The notes: generated by a model not told the origin, from the letters alone. A stretch of 42,680 bases of DNA from a virus (IMGVR_UViG_3300045988_068495:1-42680), one strand, 5' to 3'. Numbered from the stretch's first letter, positions 5,475-32,732 are shown. Program-made: numbers and translations.

Positions 5475-5688
5475 CGGATATTATGACAGCCGGGCAAAAT
5501 GCCCGTTTTGGTCAAAAGGCTCGGCACGTGAGAACAAGATATTTTGTGAAGGCCCATGCGGTGACGCGAGATTGCAGCTATGGTTTAAAGGCGACGAACA
5601 AAAACGCCGGGTATATGTGTCAAAATACTGCTGCACTCAATATGCCCAATGCCCGGTCTACAAGATCACATTAGCGGAAAAATACTAA
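5461..5688 (+). CDS. Hypothetical Cys-rich protein upstream of terS
   Basis: ATG 5461 lies 9 nt after GAGGT. Contains CPFW..FCEGPCGD..YCCTQYAQCPVY. Confidence 0.45.
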   Translation: MRGADGYYDSRAKCPFWSKGSARENKIFCEGPCGDARLQLWFKGDEQKRRVYVSKYCCTQYAQCPVYKITLAEKY

Positions 5689-5689
5689 A

Positions 5690-5722
5690 GGGTAGCGCAT
5701 TAAGCGTTACCCTTGTTTTTTT
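5690..5722 (+). terminator. Rho-independent terminator closing the early/middle operon
   Basis: GGGTAGCGC-ATTAA-GCGTTACCC forms a 9-bp stem with one G:U, followed by TTGTTTTTTT. Confidence 0.8.
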
Positions 5723-10978: not shown

Positions 10979-11045
10979 ATCGCCTTAGTTTAACGGTAAA
11001 ACGCTCGGAGAGATAGAGATGCAGGTTCGAGCCCTGCAGGCGGTA
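10979..11045 (+). ncRNA. tRNA-like element: acceptor, D and T arms are intact but the anticodon arm is aberrant. Not a canonical tRNA.
   Basis: Acceptor ATCGCCT/AGGCGGT (7 bp, one G:U). D arm GTTT-AACGGTA-AAAC. T arm GCAGG-TTCGAGC-CCTGC. Only 18 nt lie between the D and T arms and no 5-bp anticodon stem forms. Confidence 0.3.
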
Positions 11046-13595: not shown

Positions 13596-13619
13596 AGCCG
13601 CCTCATGGCGGCTATTTTA
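13596..13619 (+). terminator. Rho-independent terminator
   Basis: AGCCGCC-TCAT-GGCGGCT followed by ATTTTAA. Confidence 0.7.
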
Positions 13620-17992: not shown

Positions 17993-20900
17993 ATGGCTTC
18001 AAATAGCATAAAAAAATACATTGCGAAACTGAAAGCTAATGAAAACTGGGTTGGCGACAATGCAAGCAGCGAAAAAAGCAAGAGCACCAATTCAGATTGG
18101 CGCAGTGAGTATATTGCAAGAATAAAAAGCGGTGCGGCAGCAAAAACCTATGATGATGAGCAGAAGTCAAAAGCACTTTTGCGCAACAATCCCGGATATG
18201 TATATAGCAAAGTATACGGCGATGGAACGAAAGGCAAAGCTGCGGCTTCGAAAATTGAAACCGGCAAGGGCAACGGCTATATCAGCGTGTGGGATGGCGA
18301 TGCAGTTAAGCGCAACAATCCCGGATACACATATCTGCAACAGGCCGGAGGCGGTGAAAAGCTCACCAAAGGCAGCGACGCGATATCGGCAGGCGATATT
18401 GAGTGGTATAAAAAGATACTCAGAGGCATTGACGTAGGCCTAACCGATTTCGGCAAAAGCTTGGTTTCCACTGCTGATGTTGTTACCAGCCTCGGCGACG
18501 AGGATGGAGGCCCTTTGCAAGAGCTTTGGTATATGTTTGGCGGCGACCGCATAGCAGAGGCTGCAGGGGATAATGCATTAGGAATTAAAGGCTTGAATTT
18601 TAAAGATAACCCTATCAAAGCCTTTAATAAACTCGGTGAGAAAGAAATAGAATACCGCCAAAAGCGCGACGCTGCGTATGCAGATAACCCCCTTTATAAG
18701 TACAGCGCGGCGACTTCTGAAGCGGCGGCAATGATGGCGTCAACTCTTATGGGCGGCGGTCTTGCAACTGCTGTCGACACTGCCGCGCTTGCTAATGCTG
18801 CGCGGATTGGGCAGGCTACCTCAAAACTCAGCCAGACCGGAGCTATAGCTCAGAACGCGATAAAGCAGTTTGCGACGCGCCCGGATGCGCAAGTTATATT
18901 TGGCTCGTCATTTGGTTCAAGCTATGACGAGGCTAAACAAGACGGCGCGGATGACTTGCAGGCGCTTGTTTATGCTGCGCTGAATGGCGCAGGAAATGCG
19001 GTTACTGAACTTGGCGGCGTCTCCGAACTTGGCGGCTTGCAGAAGTTGCCCGAATGGGTGAAAAAAGCTGTTAATAAGGGCGACAAAAGTCTGCTTCTCA
19101 ACTACGCTAAGAGCATCGGGGAAGAAGCAAGCGAGGAAATCATACAGGGCATTTTAGGCAGAGGACTAAAGAGTATATACTCTGACGTGCCGCTGTATGA
19201 CGCAAACGATGAAAACTCTATAATCAATCCAAAGGCGGCGCTTGAGGAAGCTACCGGCGCGGCGGTCGTTTCGACTTTGCTCGGTCTCCCTACGACCGGC
19301 ATAAATGCGGCATACAGAGCAAAGCAGCGCGGAGAAACCGGGCAGAGATTATACGGCAATTCTCAGCGAGAGTTAGTTGACGAAGGACTGGAAAGCGAAC
19401 GAGGCACTAAAAGCTATGAGCTTGCAAGAAAATACGATGAAAAGCTAAATAGCGGCAAACAGCTTAGCGGTAACGAGCTTTACAAGCTTGCACAAGCTAA
19501 CGAAAAAGCGCAGGCAAATGAGGGACCTGCTGTTCAGCCAGTGCCAGAAGCACAAACCAATGAGGAAAGCCCGTCGTTGCCGTATGCTGCACTGAACAGA
19601 GAACAGCAGTTATCCGGGCTAAGAAATTATGTTGAACAACGCTCGGAGATGTCTGCGCCTGTTAACACAAACGTTTCAAATAATGAAGCTGTAAGCGAAA
19701 GCATAAACAATGTTGCGGCAAAGATAGATGCAACGCCTGAGTTCGTGAGCAGAGTATACAATTTAAATCCCGTCGCGTCTCCCAAGGCGTTTGAAATGGC
19801 GTTTGATGCTGTGTATCAGATGGGGCAGCGGGGCGTGAACAAAGAGACGCTTACCAAAGTGCCCGTGCTGAACCGCGCACAGGCGGAGATAGCCTATAAC
19901 ATGGGTGCATCTACAACTCAGGCGGCGGTTGACGATGCGGCTGTGCAAGGTGATAATGTAAGCACACAGGTAAACAACCAGATAAACACACAGGAGGTAA
20001 ACGAGAATGGAATACGTCTACGCGACAGCAGCCAACGGCTTAACGGTCAGAATACCGAAGGACAAATACCCTCAGTGGAAAGAGGCACAGTCGAAGCTTA
20101 CGCCGGAACAGATAGCGGCAGACAAAGCGGTTATAGCGCAGCTCAAGGCAAAGCTGGGCAAAAAGTAGTCTATAACGGCGTAGAGCAGGAAAACGTCTAC
20201 TACTCCGGCGAGGACACCGAGAGCATGAAAAAAGGCCGTGAGCTTGCAAGAAGCTACGGCTACAACGTTCAATATTTTGAGGGCGGCAATATCAAGGACA
20301 GCGGCGGCGAGTTCAGAGGCATGGTCGATACCGAGAGCAAAACCGTTATGGTGCGTTCAGACCATCCCGACATATCCGCAGAGCAGATAATGCGCCACGA
20401 GATGGGGCACGCGGCAATTGCACAGGGCGATATAAGCCTTGACGAGCTGCGCAGCGCTATGCTTTCAGACCTCTCGGAGAAAGAGCTTAACAGCGCCGTC
20501 GAGGTCTACAGGCACGCATACGGCGACACGATAAGCGAGGCCGAAGCGTTTGAGGAAATGTGCTGCGACGCGCTGGGCAGGATAAACATCTTTGCCGGAA
20601 CGGAGCACGACAGCGCAGGCTACGGCAAGATGCAGGAAAGTTTCCGTAAACACACCGCCGAGGCCGCGAACAAAGGCAGAGCACCGCCGAAGAGCGGAGT
20701 GAAGTATTCGCTTGAACCGTATTCTAATCAGCAGATTGAAAATTGGAAGAGCAGCAAGCGAATAAATGTTTATGAAAATTCCGCACAATTAGACTTGTTC
20801 GTAAAGAGAGCTATAGAGGATAAGGGTTTTACCGGCAAAATGTTTTTTGGAGTTGTTGGCAATGATCTTGCAAATGCTATAGAAACTGCGACAGGCTATA

Positions 20901-23900
20901 ATTTTACCGGGCGTAATGTTACTTTGCGTGCTGACCATGTCAGAAAAATATTCAAAGATCATGGTTCGATAAAAGCGGAAACAGCAAGAGGTCAGAGAGC
21001 AATTACAGCAAATGATTTCACACTAATCCCTGCTGTGATAAGTGAGCCTGAAAAAATAAAAAAATCTACTTACAATAATCGTCCCGCTGCCGAATTTATA
21101 AAAGTGATAGACGGCAGCAGAGTTACAGTTATTGCGGTAGATAGCGGTGGAAGTCTTGACTTGTATGTGCAAACCATGTATGCAAGCGCAAAAAAAGGAA
21201 GCATAGCCCGCATGGTCAATGCAAATGCCCTGACCAAAACGCCCGAGACGACTACGGGGACTGCTCCCAATACCAATATACCCAATACAAGCAAGAATGT
21301 CAACGAAAAATTTTCCCGAGAAGTAAAAAACGCTGAGGAATATTTCGGTACTACCTACAAAGTAAAAGAAGCCGGTTATATCTGCACAGACGGCAAAATG
21401 CTCGACTTTTCGGGTAGACACGAGGGAGCACCGGGCGGCTACAGGACAGTTGACCACCGCGACATAACTGATGCGCTCGGCGAAGATTACGGCGGCGAGG
21501 ACTACAGCGGCGGCATGATAAAATTTATGAGCGAGGGCAATATTCGTGTTTCTCCTGAGAGCGGCGGCATAAATCTATCGGTCGCGCCGAACAAGGCACA
21601 GCGCAGTACACTCGACAGGTATATTTCTTCGTTCAGAGGTGAGGTCATACTCGACATAGACCGCACAAACGGTGACACTATTGCGTCAGTTGAGTATCCT
21701 AAATATACTCATTCTTCGGTCGTGTTCAAAGATATCGACGATTATTTTGACAAAGGCAAAATACCAGAGAAATTTTCCCGCGAGCCGGAGAGGCTCAACG
21801 AACTGAGGCGGCAGAACGAAACCATGCTCGCTCAGGCGACAAACGAGGACGCCGCAAACGAGAACGAGCGCGGCCTTATAAAGGACTATAAACGCCAGTA
21901 CGACAAGGTTAGCGGCATTGTCGAAAAGCTTAACACGGCACGGCAGGAGTTGACTGCGGCAGAGAACGGCGGCGACAAAAACGCCATAGCGACAGCCCAA
22001 AATCGTTTTACCCTGCTTAGCAGAAAGTACGCAGAGGAACACAGAAAACTCAGCGATTATGTCAATATTAAGGCTTTGGGCAATGTCCTTGCGAGGGTAA
22101 AGGATAGAACGGGAGAAAATCCGCTGCCCGAAGGCATGGGCGCGGCTTCGGCAGAGTTCACGGGAGAGGAAACCGTGGGCGAGCGCTGGGTAACGGAGGC
22201 TCAGGGCGAGGGCGACAGCGCACTGCACCCGATAAGCAAGGAGCAGGAGGCAAATCTCGCCGAACAGCAGCACAGAGCGCCGCAGGAGATACCAAAGAAA
22301 GACCTGAACGGCAAGCTCACGAGCAAGCATGTTTCCACCATAGCCAACAGCGGCATGACACCGTCTGAGTTCTCCGACGCGCTGAGAGAGGATGCGGCAC
22401 TGGGTAAGTTCTCGCACATTGCATACTCCGACGAGGAAGCGCTTAAAAAGGCCGAACGCGCTATCTCTGACGACGGCTGGGATCAGGCGCTTGCAAACTA
22501 CAAGGCCGAGATAAACAGCGGCAGAGTATCGAAGGACAACACCGTTATGGGCATTGCCCTTTACAACAATGCCGTCAACAGCGGGGACTACGTAACGGCG
22601 ATGGATATTGCATCGCTCATGGTCAAAAACTCCACGAACACGGCGCAGTCCTTGCAGGCTATGCGCATTCTCAACAAGCTTTCGCCCGAATGCAGACTGT
22701 ACCTCGCGGCAAAGTCGATAGAGAACATCGAGGAAGACCTCAACGAGCGGTACAAGGACAACAAAGCGGATATACATGTTGACAAAATCCTTTATGATGA
22801 GTATGCCAAGGCGCTCAGACAGGGCGACGAGGACGGCATAAAAACCGCGTGGGCGAACATAGAGCAGAGCGTAGCACAGCAGATAAACGCGACATGGTAC
22901 GAAAAGCTCAACAACTTCCGCTATCTCGCCATGCTGGGCAATCCGAGAACACATGTCCGAAACATCTTGGGCAATGCACTTTTTACGCCGGTAAGAGAAG
23001 TAAAGAATATTATAGCGTATGGCATCGAGAATATGGTTGACGCTAAAATCGACGGCGGCATTGAGCGCAGCAAGGCAATACTCAATTCCTCGAATGCGAC
23101 GGATAAAGCGCTTATTGACTATGGCAAGATGGATTATGCCGCGATGCAGGACGTTATCCTTTCGGGCGGCAAGTACAACGACAATTTCAGTGGAGTAGAC
23201 AACAACAGAACGATATATGATAAGGTCAAGCCGCTTGAAACGCTGCGCAAAGCCAATTCAAAGGCGCTCGACAAAGAGGACGCTTTTTTCTGCAAAAATG
23301 CTTACGCTTATGCGCTTGCACGGTGGTACAAGTCAAACGGCATAAGCGCGGAGCAATTGCTCTCCGGGCAGGTCGCCGACGAGACGGTTGCCAAGGCACA
23401 GGCCATTGCCGTCAAGGAAGCGCAGAAAGCCACATACCGCGACATTAACGTGTTTTCACAATGGGTCAGCAATCTCGGCAAAACAAGGTACAAGGCTGTA
23501 AACGTGCTTGTAGAGGGCATTCTGCCGTTCAAGAAAACCCCGGCCAACATCTTAGCCCGCGGTATGGAATACTCGCCGGTCGGACTTATGAAGTCTCTGT
23601 GGGACATCCGAAGAGTCAAGGCGTATGTAAACGGTGACGTTGATAACGGCATGAGCCCGGCAGAGTTTATAGACGAAGTTTCGGCAGGGCTTACGGGTAC
23701 GGCACTCGTGGGGCTTGGCGTGCTTTTGGCGTGGCAGGGCATGTTGCTCGGCGGCAGCGGTGACGACGATAAACAAAGCAAATTCGATGAGCTGAGCGGA
23801 AATCAGAAATATGCCTTGAGCGTAGGCGGTCTGAGCATCACGCTTGACTGGCTCGCACCCGAGTGTTTGCCGGTATTCGTAGGCGTGGAGCTGTATAACT

Positions 23901-24742
23901 CGTTGAGCGGCAAAAATGACAGTGCGAATGTGTTTGACGGTGCGCTTAAATCACTTGCCAGCGTGACCACCCCTGTACTTGAAATGTCAATGCTGCAAAG
24001 CGTCAGCGACCTTATAAATAACATTGGTTACGTAGATGACGCAAGCGGCATGTATAAAATACTCTCCAAGTCCGTGACAAGCTACTTGACGCAGTATTTC
24101 CCCACCATTCTCGGACAGGCTGAGCGCACATTTGAGGAAACCCAGCGCGAGATGACCTATGTCGACCGCAACAGCGCTGCGAGTACGGAGCTGCAATACA
24201 TGTGGGGCAAGATCGCAAACAAGATACCGTTTTACGATTTCAGTCAGATACCGTACATCGACGCATGGGGGCGCACGGAGGAGACCGGCAACTTCTTCGT
24301 GAGGGCGCTTAACAACTTCGTCAATCCCGCATACGTCAAGAAGGAGCGCCCGACGGAGATAGACGGAGAGCTCGAACGGCTTTACGATCTCGGCGAAACC
24401 TCCGTATATCCCAGCCGCGCGAAAACAAACACAAAAATCAACGGCGAATATCTGACGGCTGAGGAATATGTGAAGTATGCAACAGTTAAGGGGCAAACCT
24501 CTTATGATCTGGCAACTAAGATAATAAACAGCAGTGCATATTCTCGCGCATCCGATGCCGAAAAGGCATACATGCTCAGTTATGTATACAAATACGCAGA
24601 CCATATCGCTAAGTACGAAGTCAATGACGAGAGCAGCCTTGCGAAATGGGAAGCAGCAGCCTATAAGAGTTCAAACCCGGCGCAGGGGATAATCGACCAT
24701 GCGCAGGAATATTATAAGCGCAAAGAGAACGACGAAAGTTAA
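17993..24742 (+). CDS. Giant polyvalent virion protein (2249 aa): zincin-like metallopeptidase motif, PBECR-like nuclease-fold region, C-terminal helical region with transmembrane segments
   Basis: HEMGH at 20396-20410. VTLRADHVRKIFKDHGS..FTLIPAVISEPEKI (PBECR-like). DGKMLDFSGRHEG..RTVDHRDI..GNIRVSPESGGINL (LPD-like). Hydrophobic LTGTALVGLGVLLAWQGMLLGG. Confidence 0.65.
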   Translation: MASNSIKKYIAKLKANENWVGDNASSEKSKSTNSDWRSEYIARIKSGAAAKTYDDEQKSKALLRNNPGYVYSKVYGDGTKGKAAASKIETGKGNGYISVWDGDAVKRNNPGYTYLQQAGGGEKLTKGSDAISAGDIEWYKKILRGIDVGLTDFGKSLVSTADVVTSLGDEDGGPLQELWYMFGGDRIAEAAGDNALGIKGLNFKDNPIKAFNKLGEKEIEYRQKRDAAYADNPLYKYSAATSEAAAMMASTLMGGGLATAVDTAALANAARIGQATSKLSQTGAIAQNAIKQFATRPDAQVIFGSSFGSSYDEAKQDGADDLQALVYAALNGAGNAVTELGGVSELGGLQKLPEWVKKAVNKGDKSLLLNYAKSIGEEASEEIIQGILGRGLKSIYSDVPLYDANDENSIINPKAALEEATGAAVVSTLLGLPTTGINAAYRAKQRGETGQRLYGNSQRELVDEGLESERGTKSYELARKYDEKLNSGKQLSGNELYKLAQANEKAQANEGPAVQPVPEAQTNEESPSLPYAALNREQQLSGLRNYVEQRSEMSAPVNTNVSNNEAVSESINNVAAKIDATPEFVSRVYNLNPVASPKAFEMAFDAVYQMGQRGVNKETLTKVPVLNRAQAEIAYNMGASTTQAAVDDAAVQGDNVSTQVNNQINTQEVNENGIRLRDSSQRLNGQNTEGQIPSVERGTVEAYAGTDSGRQSGYSAAQGKAGQKVVYNGVEQENVYYSGEDTESMKKGRELARSYGYNVQYFEGGNIKDSGGEFRGMVDTESKTVMVRSDHPDISAEQIMRHEMGHAAIAQGDISLDELRSAMLSDLSEKELNSAVEVYRHAYGDTISEAEAFEEMCCDALGRINIFAGTEHDSAGYGKMQESFRKHTAEAANKGRAPPKSGVKYSLEPYSNQQIENWKSSKRINVYENSAQLDLFVKRAIEDKGFTGKMFFGVVGNDLANAIETATGYNFTGRNVTLRADHVRKIFKDHGSIKAETARGQRAITANDFTLIPAVISEPEKIKKSTYNNRPAAEFIKVIDGSRVTVIAVDSGGSLDLYVQTMYASAKKGSIARMVNANALTKTPETTTGTAPNTNIPNTSKNVNEKFSREVKNAEEYFGTTYKVKEAGYICTDGKMLDFSGRHEGAPGGYRTVDHRDITDALGEDYGGEDYSGGMIKFMSEGNIRVSPESGGINLSVAPNKAQRSTLDRYISSFRGEVILDIDRTNGDTIASVEYPKYTHSSVVFKDIDDYFDKGKIPEKFSREPERLNELRRQNETMLAQATNEDAANENERGLIKDYKRQYDKVSGIVEKLNTARQELTAAENGGDKNAIATAQNRFTLLSRKYAEEHRKLSDYVNIKALGNVLARVKDRTGENPLPEGMGAASAEFTGEETVGERWVTEAQGEGDSALHPISKEQEANLAEQQHRAPQEIPKKDLNGKLTSKHVSTIANSGMTPSEFSDALREDAALGKFSHIAYSDEEALKKAERAISDDGWDQALANYKAEINSGRVSKDNTVMGIALYNNAVNSGDYVTAMDIASLMVKNSTNTAQSLQAMRILNKLSPECRLYLAAKSIENIEEDLNERYKDNKADIHVDKILYDEYAKALRQGDEDGIKTAWANIEQSVAQQINATWYEKLNNFRYLAMLGNPRTHVRNILGNALFTPVREVKNIIAYGIENMVDAKIDGGIERSKAILNSSNATDKALIDYGKMDYAAMQDVILSGGKYNDNFSGVDNNRTIYDKVKPLETLRKANSKALDKEDAFFCKNAYAYALARWYKSNGISAEQLLSGQVADETVAKAQAIAVKEAQKATYRDINVFSQWVSNLGKTRYKAVNVLVEGILPFKKTPANILARGMEYSPVGLMKSLWDIRRVKAYVNGDVDNGMSPAEFIDEVSAGLTGTALVGLGVLLAWQGMLLGGSGDDDKQSKFDELSGNQKYALSVGGLSITLDWLAPECLPVFVGVELYNSLSGKNDSANVFDGALKSLASVTTPVLEMSMLQSVSDLINNIGYVDDASGMYKILSKSVTSYLTQYFPTILGQAERTFEETQREMTYVDRNSAASTELQYMWGKIANKIPFYDFSQIPYIDAWGRTEETGNFFVRALNNFVNPAYVKKERPTEIDGELERLYDLGETSVYPSRAKTNTKINGEYLTAEEYVKYATVKGQTSYDLATKIINSSAYSRASDAEKAYMLSYVYKYADHIAKYEVNDESSLAKWEAAAYKSSNPAQGIIDHAQEYYKRKENDES

Positions 24743-24792
24743 AAAACATGCGGAGGTGGGGCTTAATAAGCCCTGCCTCCTTTTGTTATGCT
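24741..24792 (+). promoter_or_regulatory. Conserved late box, copy 3 (A6-CATGCGGAGGTGGGGCT-N23-TATGCT)
   Basis: See copies 1 and 2. This copy overlaps the terminator hairpin. Confidence 0.35.
24752..24787 (+). terminator. Rho-independent terminator after the giant ORF
   Basis: GGAGGTGGGGCTT-loop-AAGCCCTGCCTCC forms a stem of about 13 bp with two wobbles, followed by TTTTGTT. Confidence 0.75.
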
Positions 24793-24825: not shown

Positions 24826-26220
24826 TTGACAACAATCATGATCGGCAAAGCGCTGGCGACGGTGACGGAAAACGAAACCTTGACCAGCGGCATGATAAAT
24901 GCAAAGATAAAATTCGAGTTTTCAGCCGATTGGCATTCGGGAATAAGCAGAACCGCGATATTCACGGCAGGCGACGTTACAAAGGTCGTGCTCGATTCGT
25001 ATTGGGAAAACAACGTCTGCTCCATTCCGCAGGAATGCCTTGAGAAAAGCGACGAGATACTCATGGTCGGCGTGTACGGTGCTGACAACGCCAACACGGT
25101 CGCGATACCTACGGTGTGGGCGACGGTCGGCAAGATACGCAAGGGCTATGAGGGCTATGAGGACGTATCGACCGGCACACTGCCCATCTGGGCGCAGGTG
25201 CAGTCGGCGGCGGCACAGTCGGCACAGGCGGCAAAGGACGCGCAGACAGCGGCAGAAACTGCACAGGGCAAAGCCGAGGATGCGCAGAATGCCGCGGAGA
25301 CGGCACAGGCAGCAGCCGAGACCGCACAGGGCAAAGCGGAAACCGCGCAGAGCAAGGCAGAGACCGCGCGAGATACCTCGAAAGCAGCACAGGCAGCAGC
25401 GCAGACCGCACAGGGCAAGGCTGAGACTGCACAGAGCAAAGCCGAAGATGCGCAGAGTGCCGCAGAGGCTTCCGCAACGGCGGCGGCAGAATACGAGAGC
25501 GGCGCAAAAAGCGCGGCGGCAACGGCGGCGGCAGGCGGCAATATGGCCAAGAGCTGGGCTGTAGGCGGCACGGGAACGCGCGAGGGCGAGGATACCGACA
25601 ACGCGAAGTATTGGGCTAAAGCGGCTCAGGGCGCGGCAGGCGGCGGCGTGACGAGCTTCAACGGGCGCTCGGGCGCTGTCGTACCCAAGAGCGGCGACTA
25701 CACGGCGGCAATGGTCGGAGCAGACTCGCAGGGCACGGCAGAGACAAAGGCGGCCGAGGTGCAATCAAACCTCAACGCCCACACATCGGACACGGTCAAG
25801 CACGTCACGGCAGCGGAGCGGAGCACGTGGAACAGTAAGGAGACCGGCGGCGCGGCAGCTAATGTGCAATCAAACCTCAACGCCCACGCATCGGACACGG
25901 TCAAGCATGTTACGGCCGAGGAACGAGCGGTGTGGAACGCCAAAGTGGCCAAGAGCACTAAGGTCAACACAACGCTGTATGCGTCGAGCTGGAGTACGGC
26001 AAAGAAATACACCGTCAGCAACGCGAACATTACGGCGACATCGGCGGTCGAGCTGCTGCCGAGGGAGAACAACGGCATAACGCAGGCGCAGATGGAAGCA
26101 CTTTCGGGCGCGATGATAGTCGGCGGCACACAGGCGGCAGGGAGCATTCAGCTCGTCGCGTTGGGCGATAAGCCGACAACGGATATCCCGGTGACTTTAA
26201 TAATCAGGAGGGATTTGTAA
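24826..26220 (+). CDS. Tail fibre protein
   Basis: TTG 24826 lies 9 nt after AGGAGG (ATG 24838 is an alternative). Contains Ala/Gln-rich AETAQGKAE repeats, AKYWA and two H..DTVKHVT..ER..WN.K repeats. Confidence 0.7.
   Translation: MTTIMIGKALATVTENETLTSGMINAKIKFEFSADWHSGISRTAIFTAGDVTKVVLDSYWENNVCSIPQECLEKSDEILMVGVYGADNANTVAIPTVWATVGKIRKGYEGYEDVSTGTLPIWAQVQSAAAQSAQAAKDAQTAAETAQGKAEDAQNAAETAQAAAETAQGKAETAQSKAETARDTSKAAQAAAQTAQGKAETAQSKAEDAQSAAEASATAAAEYESGAKSAAATAAAGGNMAKSWAVGGTGTREGEDTDNAKYWAKAAQGAAGGGVTSFNGRSGAVVPKSGDYTAAMVGADSQGTAETKAAEVQSNLNAHTSDTVKHVTAAERSTWNSKETGGAAANVQSNLNAHASDTVKHVTAEERAVWNAKVAKSTKVNTTLYASSWSTAKKYTVSNANITATSAVELLPRENNGITQAQMEALSGAMIVGGTQAAGSIQLVALGDKPTTDIPVTLIIRRDL
25759..25940 (+). 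repeat. Tandem 105-nt (35-aa) duplication inside the fibre gene
   Basis: gtgcaatcaaacctcaacgcccac.. occurs at 25759 and again at 25864 (VQSNLNAH.SDTVKHVTA.ER..WN.K). Confidence 0.85.
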
Positions 26221-28977: not shown

Positions 28978-29241
28978 ATGAAAATCAACTGGACTGTAAG
29001 ACTTAAAAACAAAACCTTTTGGCTCGCGCTCGTTCCGGCGGTGCTGCTGCTTATTCAGGTAGTGGCGGCGGTGTTCGGCATCGATCTCAAGCTTGACGCG
29101 CTGGGGGACAAGCTGCTGGCCGTTGTAAACGCGCTGTTCGCGGTGCTTACCATTCTCGGCGTAGTCACAGATCCGACGACCGCCGGAGTCAGCGACAGCA
29201 GACAGGCTATGGAGTACGATAAACCGAAGTGTGATAAATGA
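28978..29241 (+). CDS. Holin, phiLC3 family
   Basis: MKINWTVRLKNKTFWLALVPAVLLLIQ...AVLTILGVVTDPTTAGVSDS matches the remembered family signature. Confidence 0.85.
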   Translation: MKINWTVRLKNKTFWLALVPAVLLLIQVVAAVFGIDLKLDALGDKLLAVVNALFAVLTILGVVTDPTTAGVSDSRQAMEYDKPKCDK

Positions 29242-29486
29242 CACAGGCGCGATTACGGCTCAGGCCGGACATGGCAATGCTGCCGCGCGAGAAGTGGGAT
29301 GAGCTTATATACAGCTCCAATCTCGGGCGCGAGGGCAGTAGGATAGCGGATTTGTATTTCATTCAGCAAATTCCGCAGATAGACATAGCAGAAGAAATAG
29401 GGCTTGACCGAAAAACCGTCTCGAAGAGAATCACAACGGCAAGAGCCAAAATAGAACATAATTACGAGCGGCTTTTCAAAAGCTGA
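29238..29486 (+). CDS. Sigma-70 region-4-like HTH protein
   Basis: RIADLYFIQQIPQIDIAEEIGLDRKTVSKRITTARAKI. ATGA overlap with the holin gene. Confidence 0.55.
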   Translation: MTQARLRLRPDMAMLPREKWDELIYSSNLGREGSRIADLYFIQQIPQIDIAEEIGLDRKTVSKRITTARAKIEHNYERLFKS

Positions 29487-29512
29487 GGGGAGGCAAAACC
29501 TCCCCTTTTTTT
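29487..29512 (+). terminator. Rho-independent terminator closing the late operon
   Basis: GGGGAGG-CAAAA-CCTCCCC followed by TTTTTTT. Confidence 0.85.
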
Positions 29513-29598
29513 ACGCCCATTTTCCCCATAACACGGACATTAGTTACCCCCTTTGAAAGCGGAAAAGCTTTAAGCTTTAGGTAAAGGGAGGCGGCGAA

Positions 29599-29976
29599 AT
29601 GTTCGTGTTTTTTAATCCTAATCCGGGCGCTAAGCGCGTCGGCGATTGCGCAGTGAGAGCAATTGCAAAAGCAATGGGAACGGACTGGGAAAAGACCTAT
29701 CTCGCTTTGTGCGTTGAAGGTCTGAGAGCGCACGACATGCCCTCGGGAAACAGCGTCTGGGGAAGTTACCTCAAAGCCAACGGCTTTAGACAGCGCATGC
29801 TGCCAGATGCTTGCCCGGAGTGCTACACAGTCGCCGCCTTCGCCGATGAACATCCGCACGGCGTTTATGTCCTTGCACTGTCCGGGCACGTCGTGGCCGT
29901 CGTAAACGGCGATTACTACGACACGTGGGACAGCGGCGAGGAAGTGCCGGTTTATTACTTTGAAAGAGAGGATTAA
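29599..29976 (+). CDS. Predicted papain-fold cysteine peptidase/amidase-like moron protein
   Basis: Candidate triad: Cys in RVGDCAVRAI, His in LSGHVVAVV, Asp in YYDTWDSG. RBS is AAAGGGAGG. Confidence 0.45.
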   Translation: MFVFFNPNPGAKRVGDCAVRAIAKAMGTDWEKTYLALCVEGLRAHDMPSGNSVWGSYLKANGFRQRMLPDACPECYTVAAFADEHPHGVYVLALSGHVVAVVNGDYYDTWDSGEEVPVYYFERED

Positions 29977-29978
29977 TC

Positions 29979-30350
29979 ATGGCTTACGGTTACGGCAACA
30001 TGTATGGGCAACCATATTATCAGCCGCCTATGATGGACAACCTCGCGCAGATGCGAGCACAGCAGCAGCCTGCACAGCAGGGCATGATCTGGGTGCAGGG
30101 AGAGGCGGCAGGTAAAGCGTATTTAGTAGCTGCCGGAAACACTGTTCCGCTTTGGGACAGCGAACGGCAAACGATCTATCTTAAATCCGTTGACACGGCA
30201 GGCATGCCGACTATGCGCATTCTTGACTACACGGAACGAGCGCAGAGCGCACCGGCTCAGCCGACTGCGGACTATGTGACCCGAGCAGAGTATGAGGCAC
30301 TTGTAAAGCAAGTCGCGGCGCTTATGCCGAAGGAGGTAAGTAATGAGTAA
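29979..30350 (+). CDS. Hypothetical protein with a Tyr/Pro/Gln-rich N-terminus
   Basis: MAYGYGNMYGQPYYQPPMMDN..QQQPAQQ followed by GMIWVQGEAAGKAYLVAAGNTVPLWDSERQTIYLKSVD. Confidence 0.5.
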   Translation: MAYGYGNMYGQPYYQPPMMDNLAQMRAQQQPAQQGMIWVQGEAAGKAYLVAAGNTVPLWDSERQTIYLKSVDTAGMPTMRILDYTERAQSAPAQPTADYVTRAEYEALVKQVAALMPKEVSNE

Positions 30351-30549
30351 TCCTTTGTTTCAAGCTCTCGGCGGCGGAGTTAATCCGCAGTTTCAGCAGC
30401 TCGTGCAGCGCTTTCAGCAATTTAAAAGCACGTTTCAGGGAGACCCACAACAGGAAGTGCAAAAAATGCTTCAAAGCGGAAAGATAACACAGCAGCAGCT
30501 CAATCAGGCGCAGAGCTTTGCGCAACAGTTCCAGGCGCTTATGAAGTAG
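30343..30549 (+). CDS. Small Gln-rich protein
   Basis: 68 aa, of which about 19 are Gln. Overlaps the upstream gene by 8 nt. Confidence 0.45.
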   Translation: MSNPLFQALGGGVNPQFQQLVQRFQQFKSTFQGDPQQEVQKMLQSGKITQQQLNQAQSFAQQFQALMK

Positions 30550-30604
30550 GTACATTTTATCCGGCCGGGTATTTGTAAATACATATCGAAAGGAAAACTA
30601 AACA

Positions 30605-31327
30605 ATGGCGATTTCTTCTGATGCGCCGGTAATGACTATGCCGGTTGCACCAACCTCAGCAAACGGCGGCTTCGGCGGTTTTGGCGGTGACGGATGGTGG
30701 ATAATCCTCTTTTTCATCGTGCTTTTCGGCTGGGGCGGCAACGGCTGGGGCGGTAACAATGGCGGAGTGATGGACGGATACGTTCTGACTTCCGACTTTG
30801 CAAACATCGAGCGAAAGCTTGACAACGTTAACAACGGCCTGTGTGACGGCTTCTATGCCATGAACACGGGAATGCTTAACGGCTTCGCCGGTGTCACTCA
30901 GGCGGTCACAAACGGCTTCTACTCTTCCGAGCTGTCGCGCTGCAATCAGCAGGCCGCACTTATGCAGCAGCTGAACGCAATGCAGATGCAGGCTCAGGAG
31001 TGTTGCTGCGAGAACCGCGCGGCAATTGCTCAGGTGCGTTATGATATGGCAACGCAGGCTTGCGATACTCGCAACACTGTGCAGAACGCAACACGCGACA
31101 TTATCGACAACGCAAACAGCAACAGCAAGGCAATTCTCGATTTCCTCGTCAACAGCAAGATGCAGGATTTGCAGACCGAGAACCAGAGCCTCAAGCTTGC
31201 AGCTTCGCAGGCTGCGCAGAATAATTACCTCGTGTCTCAGCTGCGGCCTTGCCCGACTCCGGCTTACATTACATGTAACCCTTGGGCTTCGTCTGCACCC
31301 TATGGGGCATGCGGTAGCTGCGCATAA
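30605..31327 (+). CDS. Membrane protein with a Gly/Trp-rich flanked TM helix, Gln/Asn-rich helical region and Cys-rich tail
   Basis: GGFGGFGGDGWWIILFFIVLFGWGGNGWGGNNGG, then QECCCENR, then a tail CPTPAYITCNPWASSAPYGACGSCA. Confidence 0.55.
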   Translation: MAISSDAPVMTMPVAPTSANGGFGGFGGDGWWIILFFIVLFGWGGNGWGGNNGGVMDGYVLTSDFANIERKLDNVNNGLCDGFYAMNTGMLNGFAGVTQAVTNGFYSSELSRCNQQAALMQQLNAMQMQAQECCCENRAAIAQVRYDMATQACDTRNTVQNATRDIIDNANSNSKAILDFLVNSKMQDLQTENQSLKLAASQAAQNNYLVSQLRPCPTPAYITCNPWASSAPYGACGSCA

Positions 31328-31395
31328 CAAATCTCATAGTTTAGCTTTTTCGTGATCTTACGAAAATGGTCGGCCTTTACCGATACTAACGATAA

Positions 31396-31428
31396 GCGGT
31401 GGGGCGCATAGCCTCACCGCATTTTTTA
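31396..31428 (+). terminator. Rho-independent terminator splitting the moron island
   Basis: GCGGTGGGG-CGCATAG-CCTCACCGC (9 bp, one G:U) followed by ATTTTTTAT. Confidence 0.7.
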
Positions 31429-31444
31429 TGAAAGGACTGATTAT

Positions 31445-31660
31445 ATGGCAACTTGCAAAGAACTCAAAGCAAAATTCATTGACTATCTTATAGATGTAGA
31501 CCTTGACACGCTCGATGTAAGCGAGCTTAACACTTTCGCGTGTATCATCAAGACTGTCAACGAAATGGAAAATGGCGATTACTATGCAAACATGATAAAA
31601 ACCATGTCGCTGTCGATACCTTTTGGTATGGCTGGAAAGGAGAGCGAAAACGATGGCTGA
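31445..31660 (+). CDS. Small acidic hypothetical protein
   Basis: Track ORF. Its stop overlaps the next start (ATGGCTGA). Confidence 0.45.
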   Translation: MATCKELKAKFIDYLIDVDLDTLDVSELNTFACIIKTVNEMENGDYYANMIKTMSLSIPFGMAGKESENDG

Positions 31661-32075
31661 ATTTACGAACTCGAGTATTGTAACTGTTGCAGCCGGGCAG
31701 AACGTACCTCTCACCGAGACTGCGGTAGCCGGTAATTGCAGCATAGTGCACCGCGAGGGCGCAGGCATTGTTACGCTCAGAGGCCTCACAAACCAGTGCA
31801 GAGCGCGTTATCGTGTTGCCTTTGGCGCGAATATAGCCATACCTGCCGGCGGCACTGTGGAGGCTATCACAGCCGCTTTAGCGATAAACGGCGAACCGCT
31901 CACCAGTGCGACGGCAACGATAACACCGGCTGCAGTTGAGAATTATTTTAATATCTACGTTGCCGCAAATGTAAACGTACCGCGCGACTGCTGCCTCACT
32001 GTAGCAGCAGAGAACACGAGCAGTCAGGCAGTCAACTTTGCGAATGCAAATCTTATAGTTGACAGAATAGCGTGA
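31653..32075 (+). CDS. Beta-rich protein with a BclA-C-terminal / C1q-TNF-like jelly-roll sequence pattern (tentative)
   Basis: ATG 31653 follows GAAAGGAGAG. RYRVAFGANIAIPAGGTVEAITAALAINGEPL...NIYVAANVNVPRDCCLTVAAENTS..ANANLIVDRIA resembles exosporium BclA CTD strand patterns. There is no collagen-like region. Confidence 0.35.
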   Translation: MAEFTNSSIVTVAAGQNVPLTETAVAGNCSIVHREGAGIVTLRGLTNQCRARYRVAFGANIAIPAGGTVEAITAALAINGEPLTSATATITPAAVENYFNIYVAANVNVPRDCCLTVAAENTSSQAVNFANANLIVDRIA

Positions 32076-32088
32076 AAGGAGCAATAAC

Positions 32089-32475
32089 ATGAGTATGAAA
32101 ACACTTGAAAGACTGCGCGACATGCTTTGTGAGGAACTTGACAGTATTGCAGAGCAGGGCGAATTAAACGTCGGCGCGCTTGACATTATCGACAAGCTTG
32201 TGCACAGCATAAAGAACATCGACAAGATCTGCATGAGCGACGGATACAGCCGTAGAAGCGAATGGGATGCAGAAGGCTTTATGCGAGGCAACAGCTACAA
32301 GCGCGACAGCATGGGGCGCTATAGCCGGGATGATGACTATAGCCGCAGACATTACAGCCGCGCCGACGAAAACGAGCACGCTATCGCAAAGCTCGAGGAT
32401 ATGCTCAAAACCGCAGGCGGCGAGAGCGAGCACATGGCGATAAAGAAAGCTATAAGCATCCTCAAAAACGCATAA
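32089..32475 (+). CDS. Hypothetical protein with a helical N-terminus and a Tyr/Ser/Arg/Asp-rich low-complexity core
   Basis: GYSRRSEWD..SYKRDSMGRYSRDDDYSRRHYSRADE. RBS is AAAGGAG. Confidence 0.5.
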   Translation: MSMKTLERLRDMLCEELDSIAEQGELNVGALDIIDKLVHSIKNIDKICMSDGYSRRSEWDAEGFMRGNSYKRDSMGRYSRDDDYSRRHYSRADENEHAIAKLEDMLKTAGGESEHMAIKKAISILKNA

Positions 32476-32481
32476 CAAAGT

Positions 32482-32502
32482 TGTCGTAAATTTTGACGTA
32501 AA
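32482..32502 (+). repeat. Arm-type direct repeat, copy 1 (TGTCGTAAATTTTGACGTAAA)
   Basis: 20 of 21 nt identical to 32712..32732. The two copies flank the tRNA-like core. Confidence 0.6.
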
Positions 32503-32597
32503 ATTGCAAGTTAAAACGTGTATATCTACGTTAATTTTTGTATAATTACGTTGAAAAATGTACGGCACAAAAACGCCGCAAACCATTGATAAACAAA

Positions 32598-32639
32598 GAA
32601 AATCCCGAAGTCGTTAAAACTTCGGGATTTTCTCTTTTT
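32598..32639. terminator. Bidirectional hairpin terminator
   Basis: GAAAATCCCGAAG-(9 nt)-CTTCGGGATTTTC has a T-run on the + strand and an A-run upstream (which is a T-run for the minus strand). Confidence 0.75.
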
Positions 32640-32677
32640 GGCACGCCGTAAGGGATTCGAACCTTTGCGGCAGAGCG
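32639..32677 (-). other. Candidate attP core: 3' end of a tRNA gene (T arm, acceptor 3' strand, discriminator, CCA)
   Basis: The minus strand reads ..GCAAAGGTTCGAATCCCTTACGGCGTGCCA. No matching 5' acceptor strand lies upstream, so this is a fragment. It sits about 60-100 nt downstream of the int stop. Confidence 0.55.
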
Positions 32678-32711
32678 AAAAGACATTGATAATACTGTGC
32701 TTTTTCGATGC

Positions 32712-32732
32712 TGTCGTAAATTTTGGCGTAAA
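32712..32732 (+). repeat. Arm-type direct repeat, copy 2 (TGTCGTAAATTTTGGCGTAAA)
   Basis: See 32482..32502. A third partial copy, TTGTCGTAAAAAT, lies at 32755..32767. Confidence 0.6.

Follow-up and report, generated by a model that had tools for sequence, protein, structure and literature searches.

What are the seven small genes that lie between the lysis genes and the attachment site (attP) of the uncultured virus IMGVR_UViG_3300045988_068495, and on what could their products act? We analysed the whole stretch of 42,680 nucleotides (nt; hereafter the window), with the island at positions 29513-32475 under study, and label its genes o1 to o7. An initial annotation, drawn up from the DNA sequence alone, had described a seven-gene moron island encoding low-complexity, Cys-rich and beta-rich proteins that could remodel a spore or cell surface in lysogens. 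The seven plus-strand open reading frames (ORFs) and three terminators it had listed are present, while the moron island gives way to another description. Positions 29238 (approximately) to 32643 form one copy of an accessory cassette, mobile and self-contained, that belongs to siphophages of Clostridia (Oscillospiraceae, Lachnospiraceae, Clostridium). As judged by sequence comparison, the region is one conserved operon-like cassette, better conserved than its neighbours between otherwise unrelated phages.

Conservation of the cassette in otherwise unrelated phages

A scan of IMG/VR with o4 yielded 584 confirmed relatives, and 80 IMG/VR loci were kept for counts of synteny. The genes o1, o2, o3, o4, o6 and o7 are all present, colinear and on one strand in 70 of these 80; among 21 genome loci, of which many are cut short, the same six are colinear in 7. 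Synteny in other phages, which the initial annotation had set beforehand as a test, is strongly conserved. Median identities in the 81 loci whose o4 is less than 80% identical to that of the window (hereafter distant loci) are 56% for o1, 41% for o2, 59% for o3, 68% for o4, 74% for o6 and 41% for o7, so that o4 and o6 are the most constrained members and o6 is the most conserved of the cassette. The neighbouring genes show a different pattern: homologues of the lysin and the integrase of the window occur in 7 and 8 of the 81 distant loci, respectively, and a homologue of its holin in none. Tail-tip genes are not conserved among the cassette loci, and no co-variation with the cassette was found. 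In whole-genome tblastn comparisons with Dulem virus 33 and the Butyrivibrio phage Ceridwen, the cassette proteins (40-63%) and sig82, a protein of 82 amino acids (aa) encoded just upstream, are the top matches, whereas genes of the head and tail either have no match or do not exceed 29% identity.

The cassette is also abundant, with at least 8000 homologue candidates each for o6, the Ceridwen type of o6 and o1. For o4, clustering at 50% identity leaves 1739 representatives, all of 93-333 aa and free of domain fusions. The named hosts of genome contigs are mostly metagenome-assembled genomes (MAGs) of Oscillospiraceae or other Clostridia. A recurring layout comprises a tail fibre, a lysin and a holin of varying types, often a GerE/sigma-r4 helix-turn-helix (HTH) gene, the cassette, and then integrase or early genes. 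Fixed order, conservation above that of the neighbours and transfer among unrelated phages form the pattern of a cargo cassette, not of virion parts, and specifically the pattern of cargo that interacts with something common to many Clostridia. The o1 family extends further, and its homologues are scattered without the rest of the cassette in Bacillus Tsamsa-like, Geobacillus GBK2, Lak and Pseudomonas Pakpunavirus phages.

All ORFs except o5 (6 of 7) match PHROG families of unknown function (E 1e-7 to 7e-56; Table 1), and because of these matches we regard o1, o2, o3, o4, o6 and o7 as conserved coding genes rather than chance ORFs. Their protein families are catalogued in PHROGs and uncharacterised, and the literature on Ceridwen, on prophage and exosporium BclA, on DUF7841 and on Oscillospiraceae prophages yielded no study of cassette genes. 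Public gene calls on identical contigs show an antisense Leu/Lys-rich ORF of 77 aa at 30322-30555 (-) in place of the Gln-rich o3. The o3 frame is favoured by its PHROG match and by the retention of the plus frame in 69 of the 81 distant loci. The mechanical ORF of o6 begins at a TTG at 31623, upstream of the ATG at 31653.

The cassette resembles the conversion or moron modules of Gram-positive temperate phages, and bor and lom of lambda, in its position, its terminator bounds, its exchange between unrelated phages and its lack of an evident virion role. It differs from them in that six to seven genes keep a fixed order across hundreds of phages, in a GC content (0.50-0.53) that does not deviate from the rest of the phage, in having no sigma-70-type promoter, in being kept in phages without an annotated integrase, and in possessing its own RNA element. 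New with respect to known conversion modules are the fixed multi-gene architecture, the occurrence in phages without an annotated integrase, the exosporium-like fold described below and the embedded RNA element.

The location between the lysis genes and attP was checked against an integrated copy (L108, on a 169.8-kb contig) and proved correct. The window is identical to this copy up to about 32663, beyond which there is host DNA, and the divergence point falls within a host gene for tRNA-Arg(ACG), at its 3' end (ARAGORN; L108 8987-9063, minus strand). Direct repeats GTCGTAAATTTTGRCGTAAA at 32482-32501 and 32711-32730 lie on either side of the attP core and the integrase gene's end; the GTCGTAAATTTTGRCGTAAA repeats are probably arm-type integrase binding sites. 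Ceridwen carries the cassette and the C. perfringens phage PMQ04 its core, and an integrase is annotated in neither. Ceridwen has been seen only in the lytic cycle, and its authors regard the phage as probably virulent (PMC7372960). A chromosomal remnant in an Oscillospiraceae MAG (L087 6628-8818, 120-kb contig) consists of an N-terminally truncated o4, the RNA element, o6 (79% identity) and o7, the last two intact; it sits among host metabolic genes beside an ISL3-like transposase fragment, with a sporulation-type sigma factor gene 7 kb away.

The small acidic o5 is limited to close relatives and 10 of the 81 distant loci and occupies a variable slot, and o7 follows o6 in 67 of the 81, with a DUF7841 protein in the o7 slot of L078-type cassettes. 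L078-type loci and PMQ04 have o2-like, o3-like and o4 genes, but in place of the TNF-like o6 they then encode another beta-rich protein with Cys, 119-130 aa long (L078 6714-7106; L105 5360-5719, which is PMQ04), whose N-terminal CxxC and internal CC motifs are perhaps reminiscent of endospore-appendage (Ena) subunits. A further small ORF (about 45-60 aa, ...L..G.T...A......LE.YV...) overlaps the start of o1 in L019-L025, L029, L032, L034, L044, L097, L104 and L116; an extra gene, lacking in the window, can therefore open the cassette.

Table 1. Features of the cassette and its borders in the window
Feature	Position	Strand	Description
sig82	29238..29486	+	82-aa sigma-70 region-4 / GerE-type HTH protein just 5' of the cassette; candidate regulator
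Intrinsic terminator after lysis/HTH genes	29485..29512	+	9-bp stem with 6 GC pairs, T run; hairpin 29485-29507
Cassette-specific motif CCCATA-N4-GGACA	29525..29539	+	promoter-like or operator-like
o1	29599..29976	+	125 aa; minimal papain-like Cys-His-Asp protein (predicted); phrog_3754, 1.7e-31
o2	29979..30350	+	123 aa; Tyr/Pro/Gln/Met-rich N-terminus; phrog_21718, 1.5e-26
o3	30343..30549	+	68 aa, 29% Gln; overlaps the end of o2; phrog_22984, 1.8e-21
o4	30605..31327	+	240 aa; hydrophobic segment, CCC, Cys/Pro-rich tail; phrog_16490, 3.7e-49
Conserved structured RNA element	31343..31428	+	P1, P2, P3 (intrinsic terminator, 31396-31420) and U run
o5	31445..31660	+	optional 71-aa acidic protein; 8-nt overlap with the start of o6
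o6	31653..32075	+	140 aa from ATG; TNF/C1q-like jelly roll (predicted); phrog_20016, 7.2e-56
o7	32089..32475	+	128 aa; helical ends, low-complexity centre; phrog_28802, 1.2e-7
Strong terminator closing the cassette	32597..32643	+	15-bp stem and T run; hairpin 32597-32633
attP core	32640..32663		identical to the 3' end of the host tRNA-Arg(ACG) gene

Predicted folds and conserved residues of the products

Searches of all seven products against Pfam, NCBIfam and PADLOC returned nothing above threshold. The component models of PADLOC-DB 2.0 gave only chance-level matches (E 0.004-0.018), as did PDB sequence and profile searches with o1, o2, o4, o6 and o7. The statement of the initial annotation that no defence or virulence genes can be recognised accords with this lack of matches to known families. 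The amino-acid compositions it had listed hold as well (Tyr/Pro/Gln in o2, Gln in o3, Gly/Trp with CCC and a Cys-rich tail in o4, acidic o5, Tyr/Ser/Arg/Asp in o7), while the likeness to GerQ, CotG and CotY that it had read into them is not borne out by Pfam, where o2, o3, o4 and o7 match no such family (GerQ, CotG, CotY/ExsY) at E up to 1. The two folds it had proposed, papain-like for o1 and BclA- or C1q-like for o6, agree with AlphaFold2 and Foldseek.

The clearer of the two is o6. A model built from 69 sequences of two clades (predicted local distance difference test, pLDDT, 91.1) is an all-beta jelly roll of the TNF/C1q type, and the best Foldseek matches in the PDB are the C-terminal domain (CTD) of F-BclA, BxpB, ExsFA and BclA (9h38, 8d02, 7r1m, 1wck) with probability 1.00, E values of 3e-7 to 7e-6 and template-modelling scores (TM) of 0.66-0.75. 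Next in rank are TNF ligands and a phage spike knob (phi812 central spike knob). Among the viral structures of BFVD the best matches are standalone proteins of 130-145 aa from uncultured gut phages (TM 0.83-0.87), followed at lower rank by the heads of collagen-like fibres. In sequence this likeness is faint: o6 scores 16.9 bits against Pfam BclA_C (PF18573; E=0.0058), where the gathering cut-off is 38 bits, BclA_C is matched by 3 of 13 diverse o6 members (best E=4.4e-4), and a PDB profile search with o6 found no BclA. C49, C113 and C114 are invariant. With the TNF-like exosporium and appendage proteins of the Bacillus cereus group (BclA CTD, F-BclA, ExsFA/BxpB) o6 shares the jelly roll, the absence of a signal peptide, conserved Cys, Cys-, Tyr- and Gln-rich neighbours and, as in ExsFA/BxpB, a small standalone size. 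It differs from them in falling below the BclA_C cut-off, in being phage-borne, also in a phage of a non-sporulating genus, and in its N-terminus, since the jelly roll begins at residue 2 and neither collagen-like GXX repeats nor an exosporium-targeting segment precede it.

A papain-like alpha+beta topology is predicted for o1 from an alignment of 76 homologues (pLDDT 94.6). D16, C17, H97 and D108 are invariant in these 76 sequences, and in the model the helix 17-26 begins with Cys17, whereas strands 97-102 and 105-108 bear His97 and Asp108. The model thus shows what is expected of clan CA peptidases, a conserved Cys at the N-terminus of a helix with His and Asp on a beta sheet. The best Foldseek matches (Josephin-2, AvrPphB, the double-glycine C39 peptidase LahT150, staphopain) are weak (E 0.05-0.4, TM about 0.5; the single best E 0.048, TM 0.51); the top matches are mostly of clan CA. 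Compared with LahT150, Josephin, AvrPphB and staphopain, o1 has the same topology and placement of the three residues; the structural match is weak, however, there is no match by sequence in Pfam, NCBIfam or the PDB, and the protein is smaller (125 aa) and unfused to a transporter. We interpret o1 as a probable papain-like protein with an invariant Cys/His/Asp set and as a putative peptidase.

In o4, a hydrophobic segment at about residues 23-45 is flanked by Gly and Trp (GGFGGFGGDG-WWIILFFIVLFGW-GGNGWGG), with a KD19 maximum of 1.68 that is borderline for a transmembrane helix. A Q/N-rich helical region carries an invariant CCC at 133-135 and is followed by the Cys/Pro-rich tail; C80, C153, C236 and C239 are each at least 85% conserved. 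Residues 63-126 resembled influenza HA2 in PDB searches, with E about 1, which we do not take as evidence.

The remaining products are compositionally simpler. The first 36 residues of o2 are rich in Q, M, Y and P and are followed by a small, beta-rich domain in the middle and a helix at the C-terminus, an architecture that is unchanged in the aligned versions of L078 and C. perfringens PMQ04; o2 has no PDB or Pfam match. The net charge of o5 is -7, and no family in Pfam or PHROG matches it. In o7, helical ends surround an R/S/D/Y-rich low-complexity centre (residues 50-92). No hydrophobic N-terminal signal was found in o1, o2, o3, o5, o6 or o7, and no cassette product has a signal peptide or a lipobox.

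An RNA element within the operon and transcription of the cassette

A conserved structured RNA starts about 15-20 nt past the stop codon of o4, and the terminator that appeared to split the island is its third hairpin. The parts of the RNA follow one another as AGCU, P1 (31347-31366), UG(G/U)UC (UGGUC in the window), P2 (31369-31384), GAUACUGAC..AAC, P3 (31396-31420) and the U run. A covariance model (R1) finds a single plus-strand copy directly 3' of the o4 stop in 53 loci with 52-121 bits, and a weak match of 38 bits in L101 that does not adjoin the o4 stop. In a plain MAFFT alignment 92.4% of the cells pair and 10 pairs are changed on both sides; in the model-fitted alignment 94% of the cells are paired and 8 of 8 P1 pairs are changed on both sides, with UA, GC, AU and CG all seen. 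None of 500 shuffles reaches the observed pairing score, the values obtained with slid partners collapse, and the minimum-free-energy z-scores are -4.5 and -4.1. P1 is free in sequence and strict in pairing, and its flanks are fixed. Rfam has nothing for 31343-31428 at gathering score or at E up to 10. We interpret this RNA as a candidate new cis-regulatory class with clear covariation.

In many loci the ribosome-binding site (RBS) of the next gene follows straight after the U run, so that a promoter would not fit in between; o6 and o7 can therefore be expressed only by passage through P3. The element is missing in Ceridwen, where o4 and o6 lie 13 nt apart. Like terminator attenuators, riboswitch platforms, put of HK022 and EAR, the RNA combines conserved hairpins upstream of an intrinsic terminator with that terminator itself, which has to be read through. 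It differs from them in matching no Rfam family, in its position between genes of an operon rather than in a 5' leader, and in the free P1 with fixed flanks, and no ligand, leader peptide or supported antiterminator pairing, as in attenuators and riboswitches, could be identified. Leader-peptide attenuation was considered and dropped, as the NUG between P1 and P2 is AUG, CUG or UUG, lacks an RBS and opens frames of inconsistent length. A sigma-70 promoter inside the element, with GATACT as -10, was likewise rejected: its -35 would fall in the freely varying P1 and the transcript would start just before the terminator.

Upstream of the cassette lie genes for a CHAP lysin, a 77-aa coiled-coil/transmembrane protein and a Phage_holin_1 holin, followed by sig82, whose matches to Pfam Sigma70_r4_2 (E=0.004) and to NCBIfam sigma70-ECF (9e-8) fall short of the cut-offs. 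Homologues of sig82 are found 5' of o1 in 18 of the 81 distant loci, and in L119 a 65-aa GerE/Sigma70_r4_2 gene takes the same place. The terminator stem at 29485-29512 shows compensatory changes in close relatives. Between this terminator and o1 (29513-29598) no sigma-70-like promoter was found. The motif CCCATA-N4-GGACA is unique in the window, with 0 occurrences expected by chance, and CCCATA-N2-4-GGACA precedes o1 in 38 loci of two clades whose upstream regions otherwise differ. In the L035-type clade (L035 4866-4878) the motif is preceded by direct repeats TGATGCACAAn / TGAGGCACA at a spacing of 11 nt, and base-pairs with the region of the RBS and start codon to give a hairpin. The motif contains CATA, which forms the core of -10 elements recognised by sporulation sigma factors. 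It could not be assigned to one particular sporulation sigma factor, as it matches the consensus sequences of sigmaE, sigmaK and sigmaG only in part.

Strong plus-strand hairpins resembling intrinsic terminators also occur within the late array, at 5688-5714 (before the small terminase gene), 13596-13613 (after the capsid gene) and 24752-24780 (after the gene of a 2249-aa protein). These internal terminators imply read-through or antitermination of late transcription, so that late read-through into the cassette is conceivable. In L119, however, four opposite-strand genes lie between the lysis genes and the cassette, and this arrangement, the uniqueness of the motif and its recurrence in two clades would argue against pure late read-through.

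A few observations concern other parts of the window. Homologues of the tape-measure-sized 2249-aa protein (17993-24742) match PBECR3, MuF_C and ART-PolyVal, and the protein resembles a polyvalent protein, be it instead of or in addition to a tape measure. In the tail gene that follows, GC jumps to 0.635 with an AT skew of 0.45 (25001-26000), and homologues of this gene show a faint match to XkdV_N. At 10979-11045 (+) the Rfam tRNA model scores 45.9 bits, above its gathering score, whereas ARAGORN reports no tRNA anywhere in the window. The SleB-like gene named in the initial annotation is present in the early region as Hydrolase_2 (334-852, 3.8e-7); Ceridwen, which shares the cassette, also has a SleB-like Hydrolase_2 gene in its early region (L104 13404-13979).

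Possible functions of the cassette

The reading that we favour, though tentatively, is that of a mobile accessory operon under dedicated transcriptional and RNA-level control, in which o4 and o6 assemble in the cytoplasm into a complex associated with the membrane, with o2, o3 and o7 as scaffold and o1 in processing. Because no product has a signal peptide, the products would be made and assembled in the cytoplasm. There o4 may attach to the inner face of the membrane via its Gly/Trp-flanked hydrophobic segment, oligomerise through its helical region and carry a trimer of the TNF-like o6, to which it could be coupled through cysteines, either through a bound metal or, once the cell has opened, through disulfides. 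Scaffold or adaptor roles would fall to o2, o3 and o7, all of low complexity, o1 might process one of the other cassette products, and the RNA element would set or switch the amount of transcription that reaches o6 and o7. The assembly would act on the infected or lysogenic cell, not in the virion; altering the membrane or envelope so that other phages are excluded is one guess.

Several observations weigh against this proposal. Neither the contact of o4 and o6 nor the membrane attachment nor an effect on the cell is backed by homology to characterised proteins. With 10-13 strongly hydrophobic residues the segment of o4 is short; it has no positive-inside signal and may not be a transmembrane helix. 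For o1, the Foldseek matches are weak (E 0.05, TM 0.5). An antiterminator of the P2 loop/3' strand with the 5' arm of P3 is energetically feasible (-9 to -14 kcal/mol) but no better than shuffles (mean z about -1). Finally, the cassette invariably follows close on the lysis genes, on the strand of the late genes, and further terminators lie within the late region; plain co-expression with the late genes and a role in the lytic cycle or the virion have therefore to be reckoned with.

This last point leads to an unlikely competitor, hardly stronger than the spore link treated next, in which the genes form the distal part of the late operon and help in lysis or egress, for instance as a membrane-acting partner of endolysin and holin (o4 would then be a membrane protein resembling a spanin or a fusion protein) or by protecting the progeny from cell debris. 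The constant position on the late strand right after lysin and holin, even in lineages with unrelated lysis genes, would suit such a role, as would the retention in phages without an annotated integrase and the need for read-through at 5688, 13596 and 24752. The hydrophobic N-terminal segment, coiled coil and conserved Cys of o4 also resemble the architecture of an i-spanin. But the hosts are monoderm Clostridia and offer no outer membrane to fuse, and a lipoprotein partner is lacking. In the comparison with Rz-type spanins and their o-spanin, the hosts (Oscillospiraceae, Clostridia, Butyrivibrio) and the absence of a lipobox or signal peptide speak against an assignment. Furthermore, the cassette is conserved independently of the lysis genes and is separated from them in L119 by the four opposite-strand genes, and its upstream motif occurs nowhere else in the genome, which argues for separate control.

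The spore link of the initial annotation stands in part and is a minority possibility, conceivable and improbable rather than favoured. On this view the cassette serves lysogenic conversion: the mother cell would make its products during sporulation, and they would join or remodel the coat or exosporium, with o6 in the manner of ExsFA/BxpB or of the head of BclA and the Cys-, Tyr- and Gln-rich partners as a cross-linkable matrix. What stands is that the solved structures nearest to o6 are Bacillus exosporium and endospore-appendage proteins (F-BclA, BxpB, ExsFA, BclA), of which ExsFA and BxpB are also small standalone TNF-like proteins. Spore coat and exosporium proteins assemble in the mother-cell cytoplasm without signal peptides, and the absence of such peptides from the cassette products is as expected of this route. 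The location beside attP between terminators, the CATA in the upstream motif (an imperfect match), the SleB-like Hydrolase_2 gene in this phage and Ceridwen, and the retention of o6 and o7 by the L087 remnant in a MAG that encodes a sporulation-type sigma factor point the same way. What does not stand is the connection with coat families, as no Pfam match to GerQ, CotG, CotY/ExsY or other such families exists and BclA_C reaches 16.9 of the 38 bits; in structure, TNF ligands and phage-fibre heads match o6 about equally well. Butyrivibrio, the genus of the Ceridwen host Butyrivibrio fibrisolvens, is described as non-sporulating, and yet Ceridwen, seen only as a lytic phage, carries the cassette, as PMQ04 without an annotated integrase carries its core. 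The homologues that were found, moreover, lie on phage-sized contigs and not in sporulation loci.

It is rather improbable that the cassette is a portable "coat-building kit", in which a TNF-fold trimer of the ExsF/BclA type, a CCC-bearing anchor or stalk, a Gln/Tyr-rich matrix, a maturation peptidase, a dedicated promoter and a hitherto undescribed RNA attenuator build a cross-linked layer or appendage in infected, lysogenic or sporulating cells. If true, it would alter the surface of cell or spore and represent a phage-mobilised analogue of exosporium or endospore-appendage (ENA) assembly.

Most doubtful is a role in the virion, with o6 as a trimeric decoration or fibre-tip protein, o4 as a fibrous or ejection protein and the rest as assembly factors: TNF/C1q-like folds are common at the fibre tips of phages and giant viruses and in the phi812 central spike knob, signal peptides are absent and the genes are on the late strand, but the cassette lies outside the morphogenesis module after the lysis genes, the 140 aa of o6 are jelly roll throughout, with no domain at the N-terminus for attachment, the L087 remnant retains o6 and o7 without virion genes, and an identity of 70-80%, found among phages that have unrelated tail-tip, tape-measure, portal and capsid genes, runs directly counter to what docking to a virion would lead one to expect.

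Whichever of the candidate roles applies, be it exclusion, modification of envelope or spore, or a step in egress, the cassette is among the more abundant functional dark matter of gut and rumen phages. Its conservation above capsid, tail and lysis genes implies a strongly selected function tied to a trait that many Clostridia share, and once known, it would account for a block of genes that recurs in thousands of prophages from commensal Firmicutes, butyrate producers among them.

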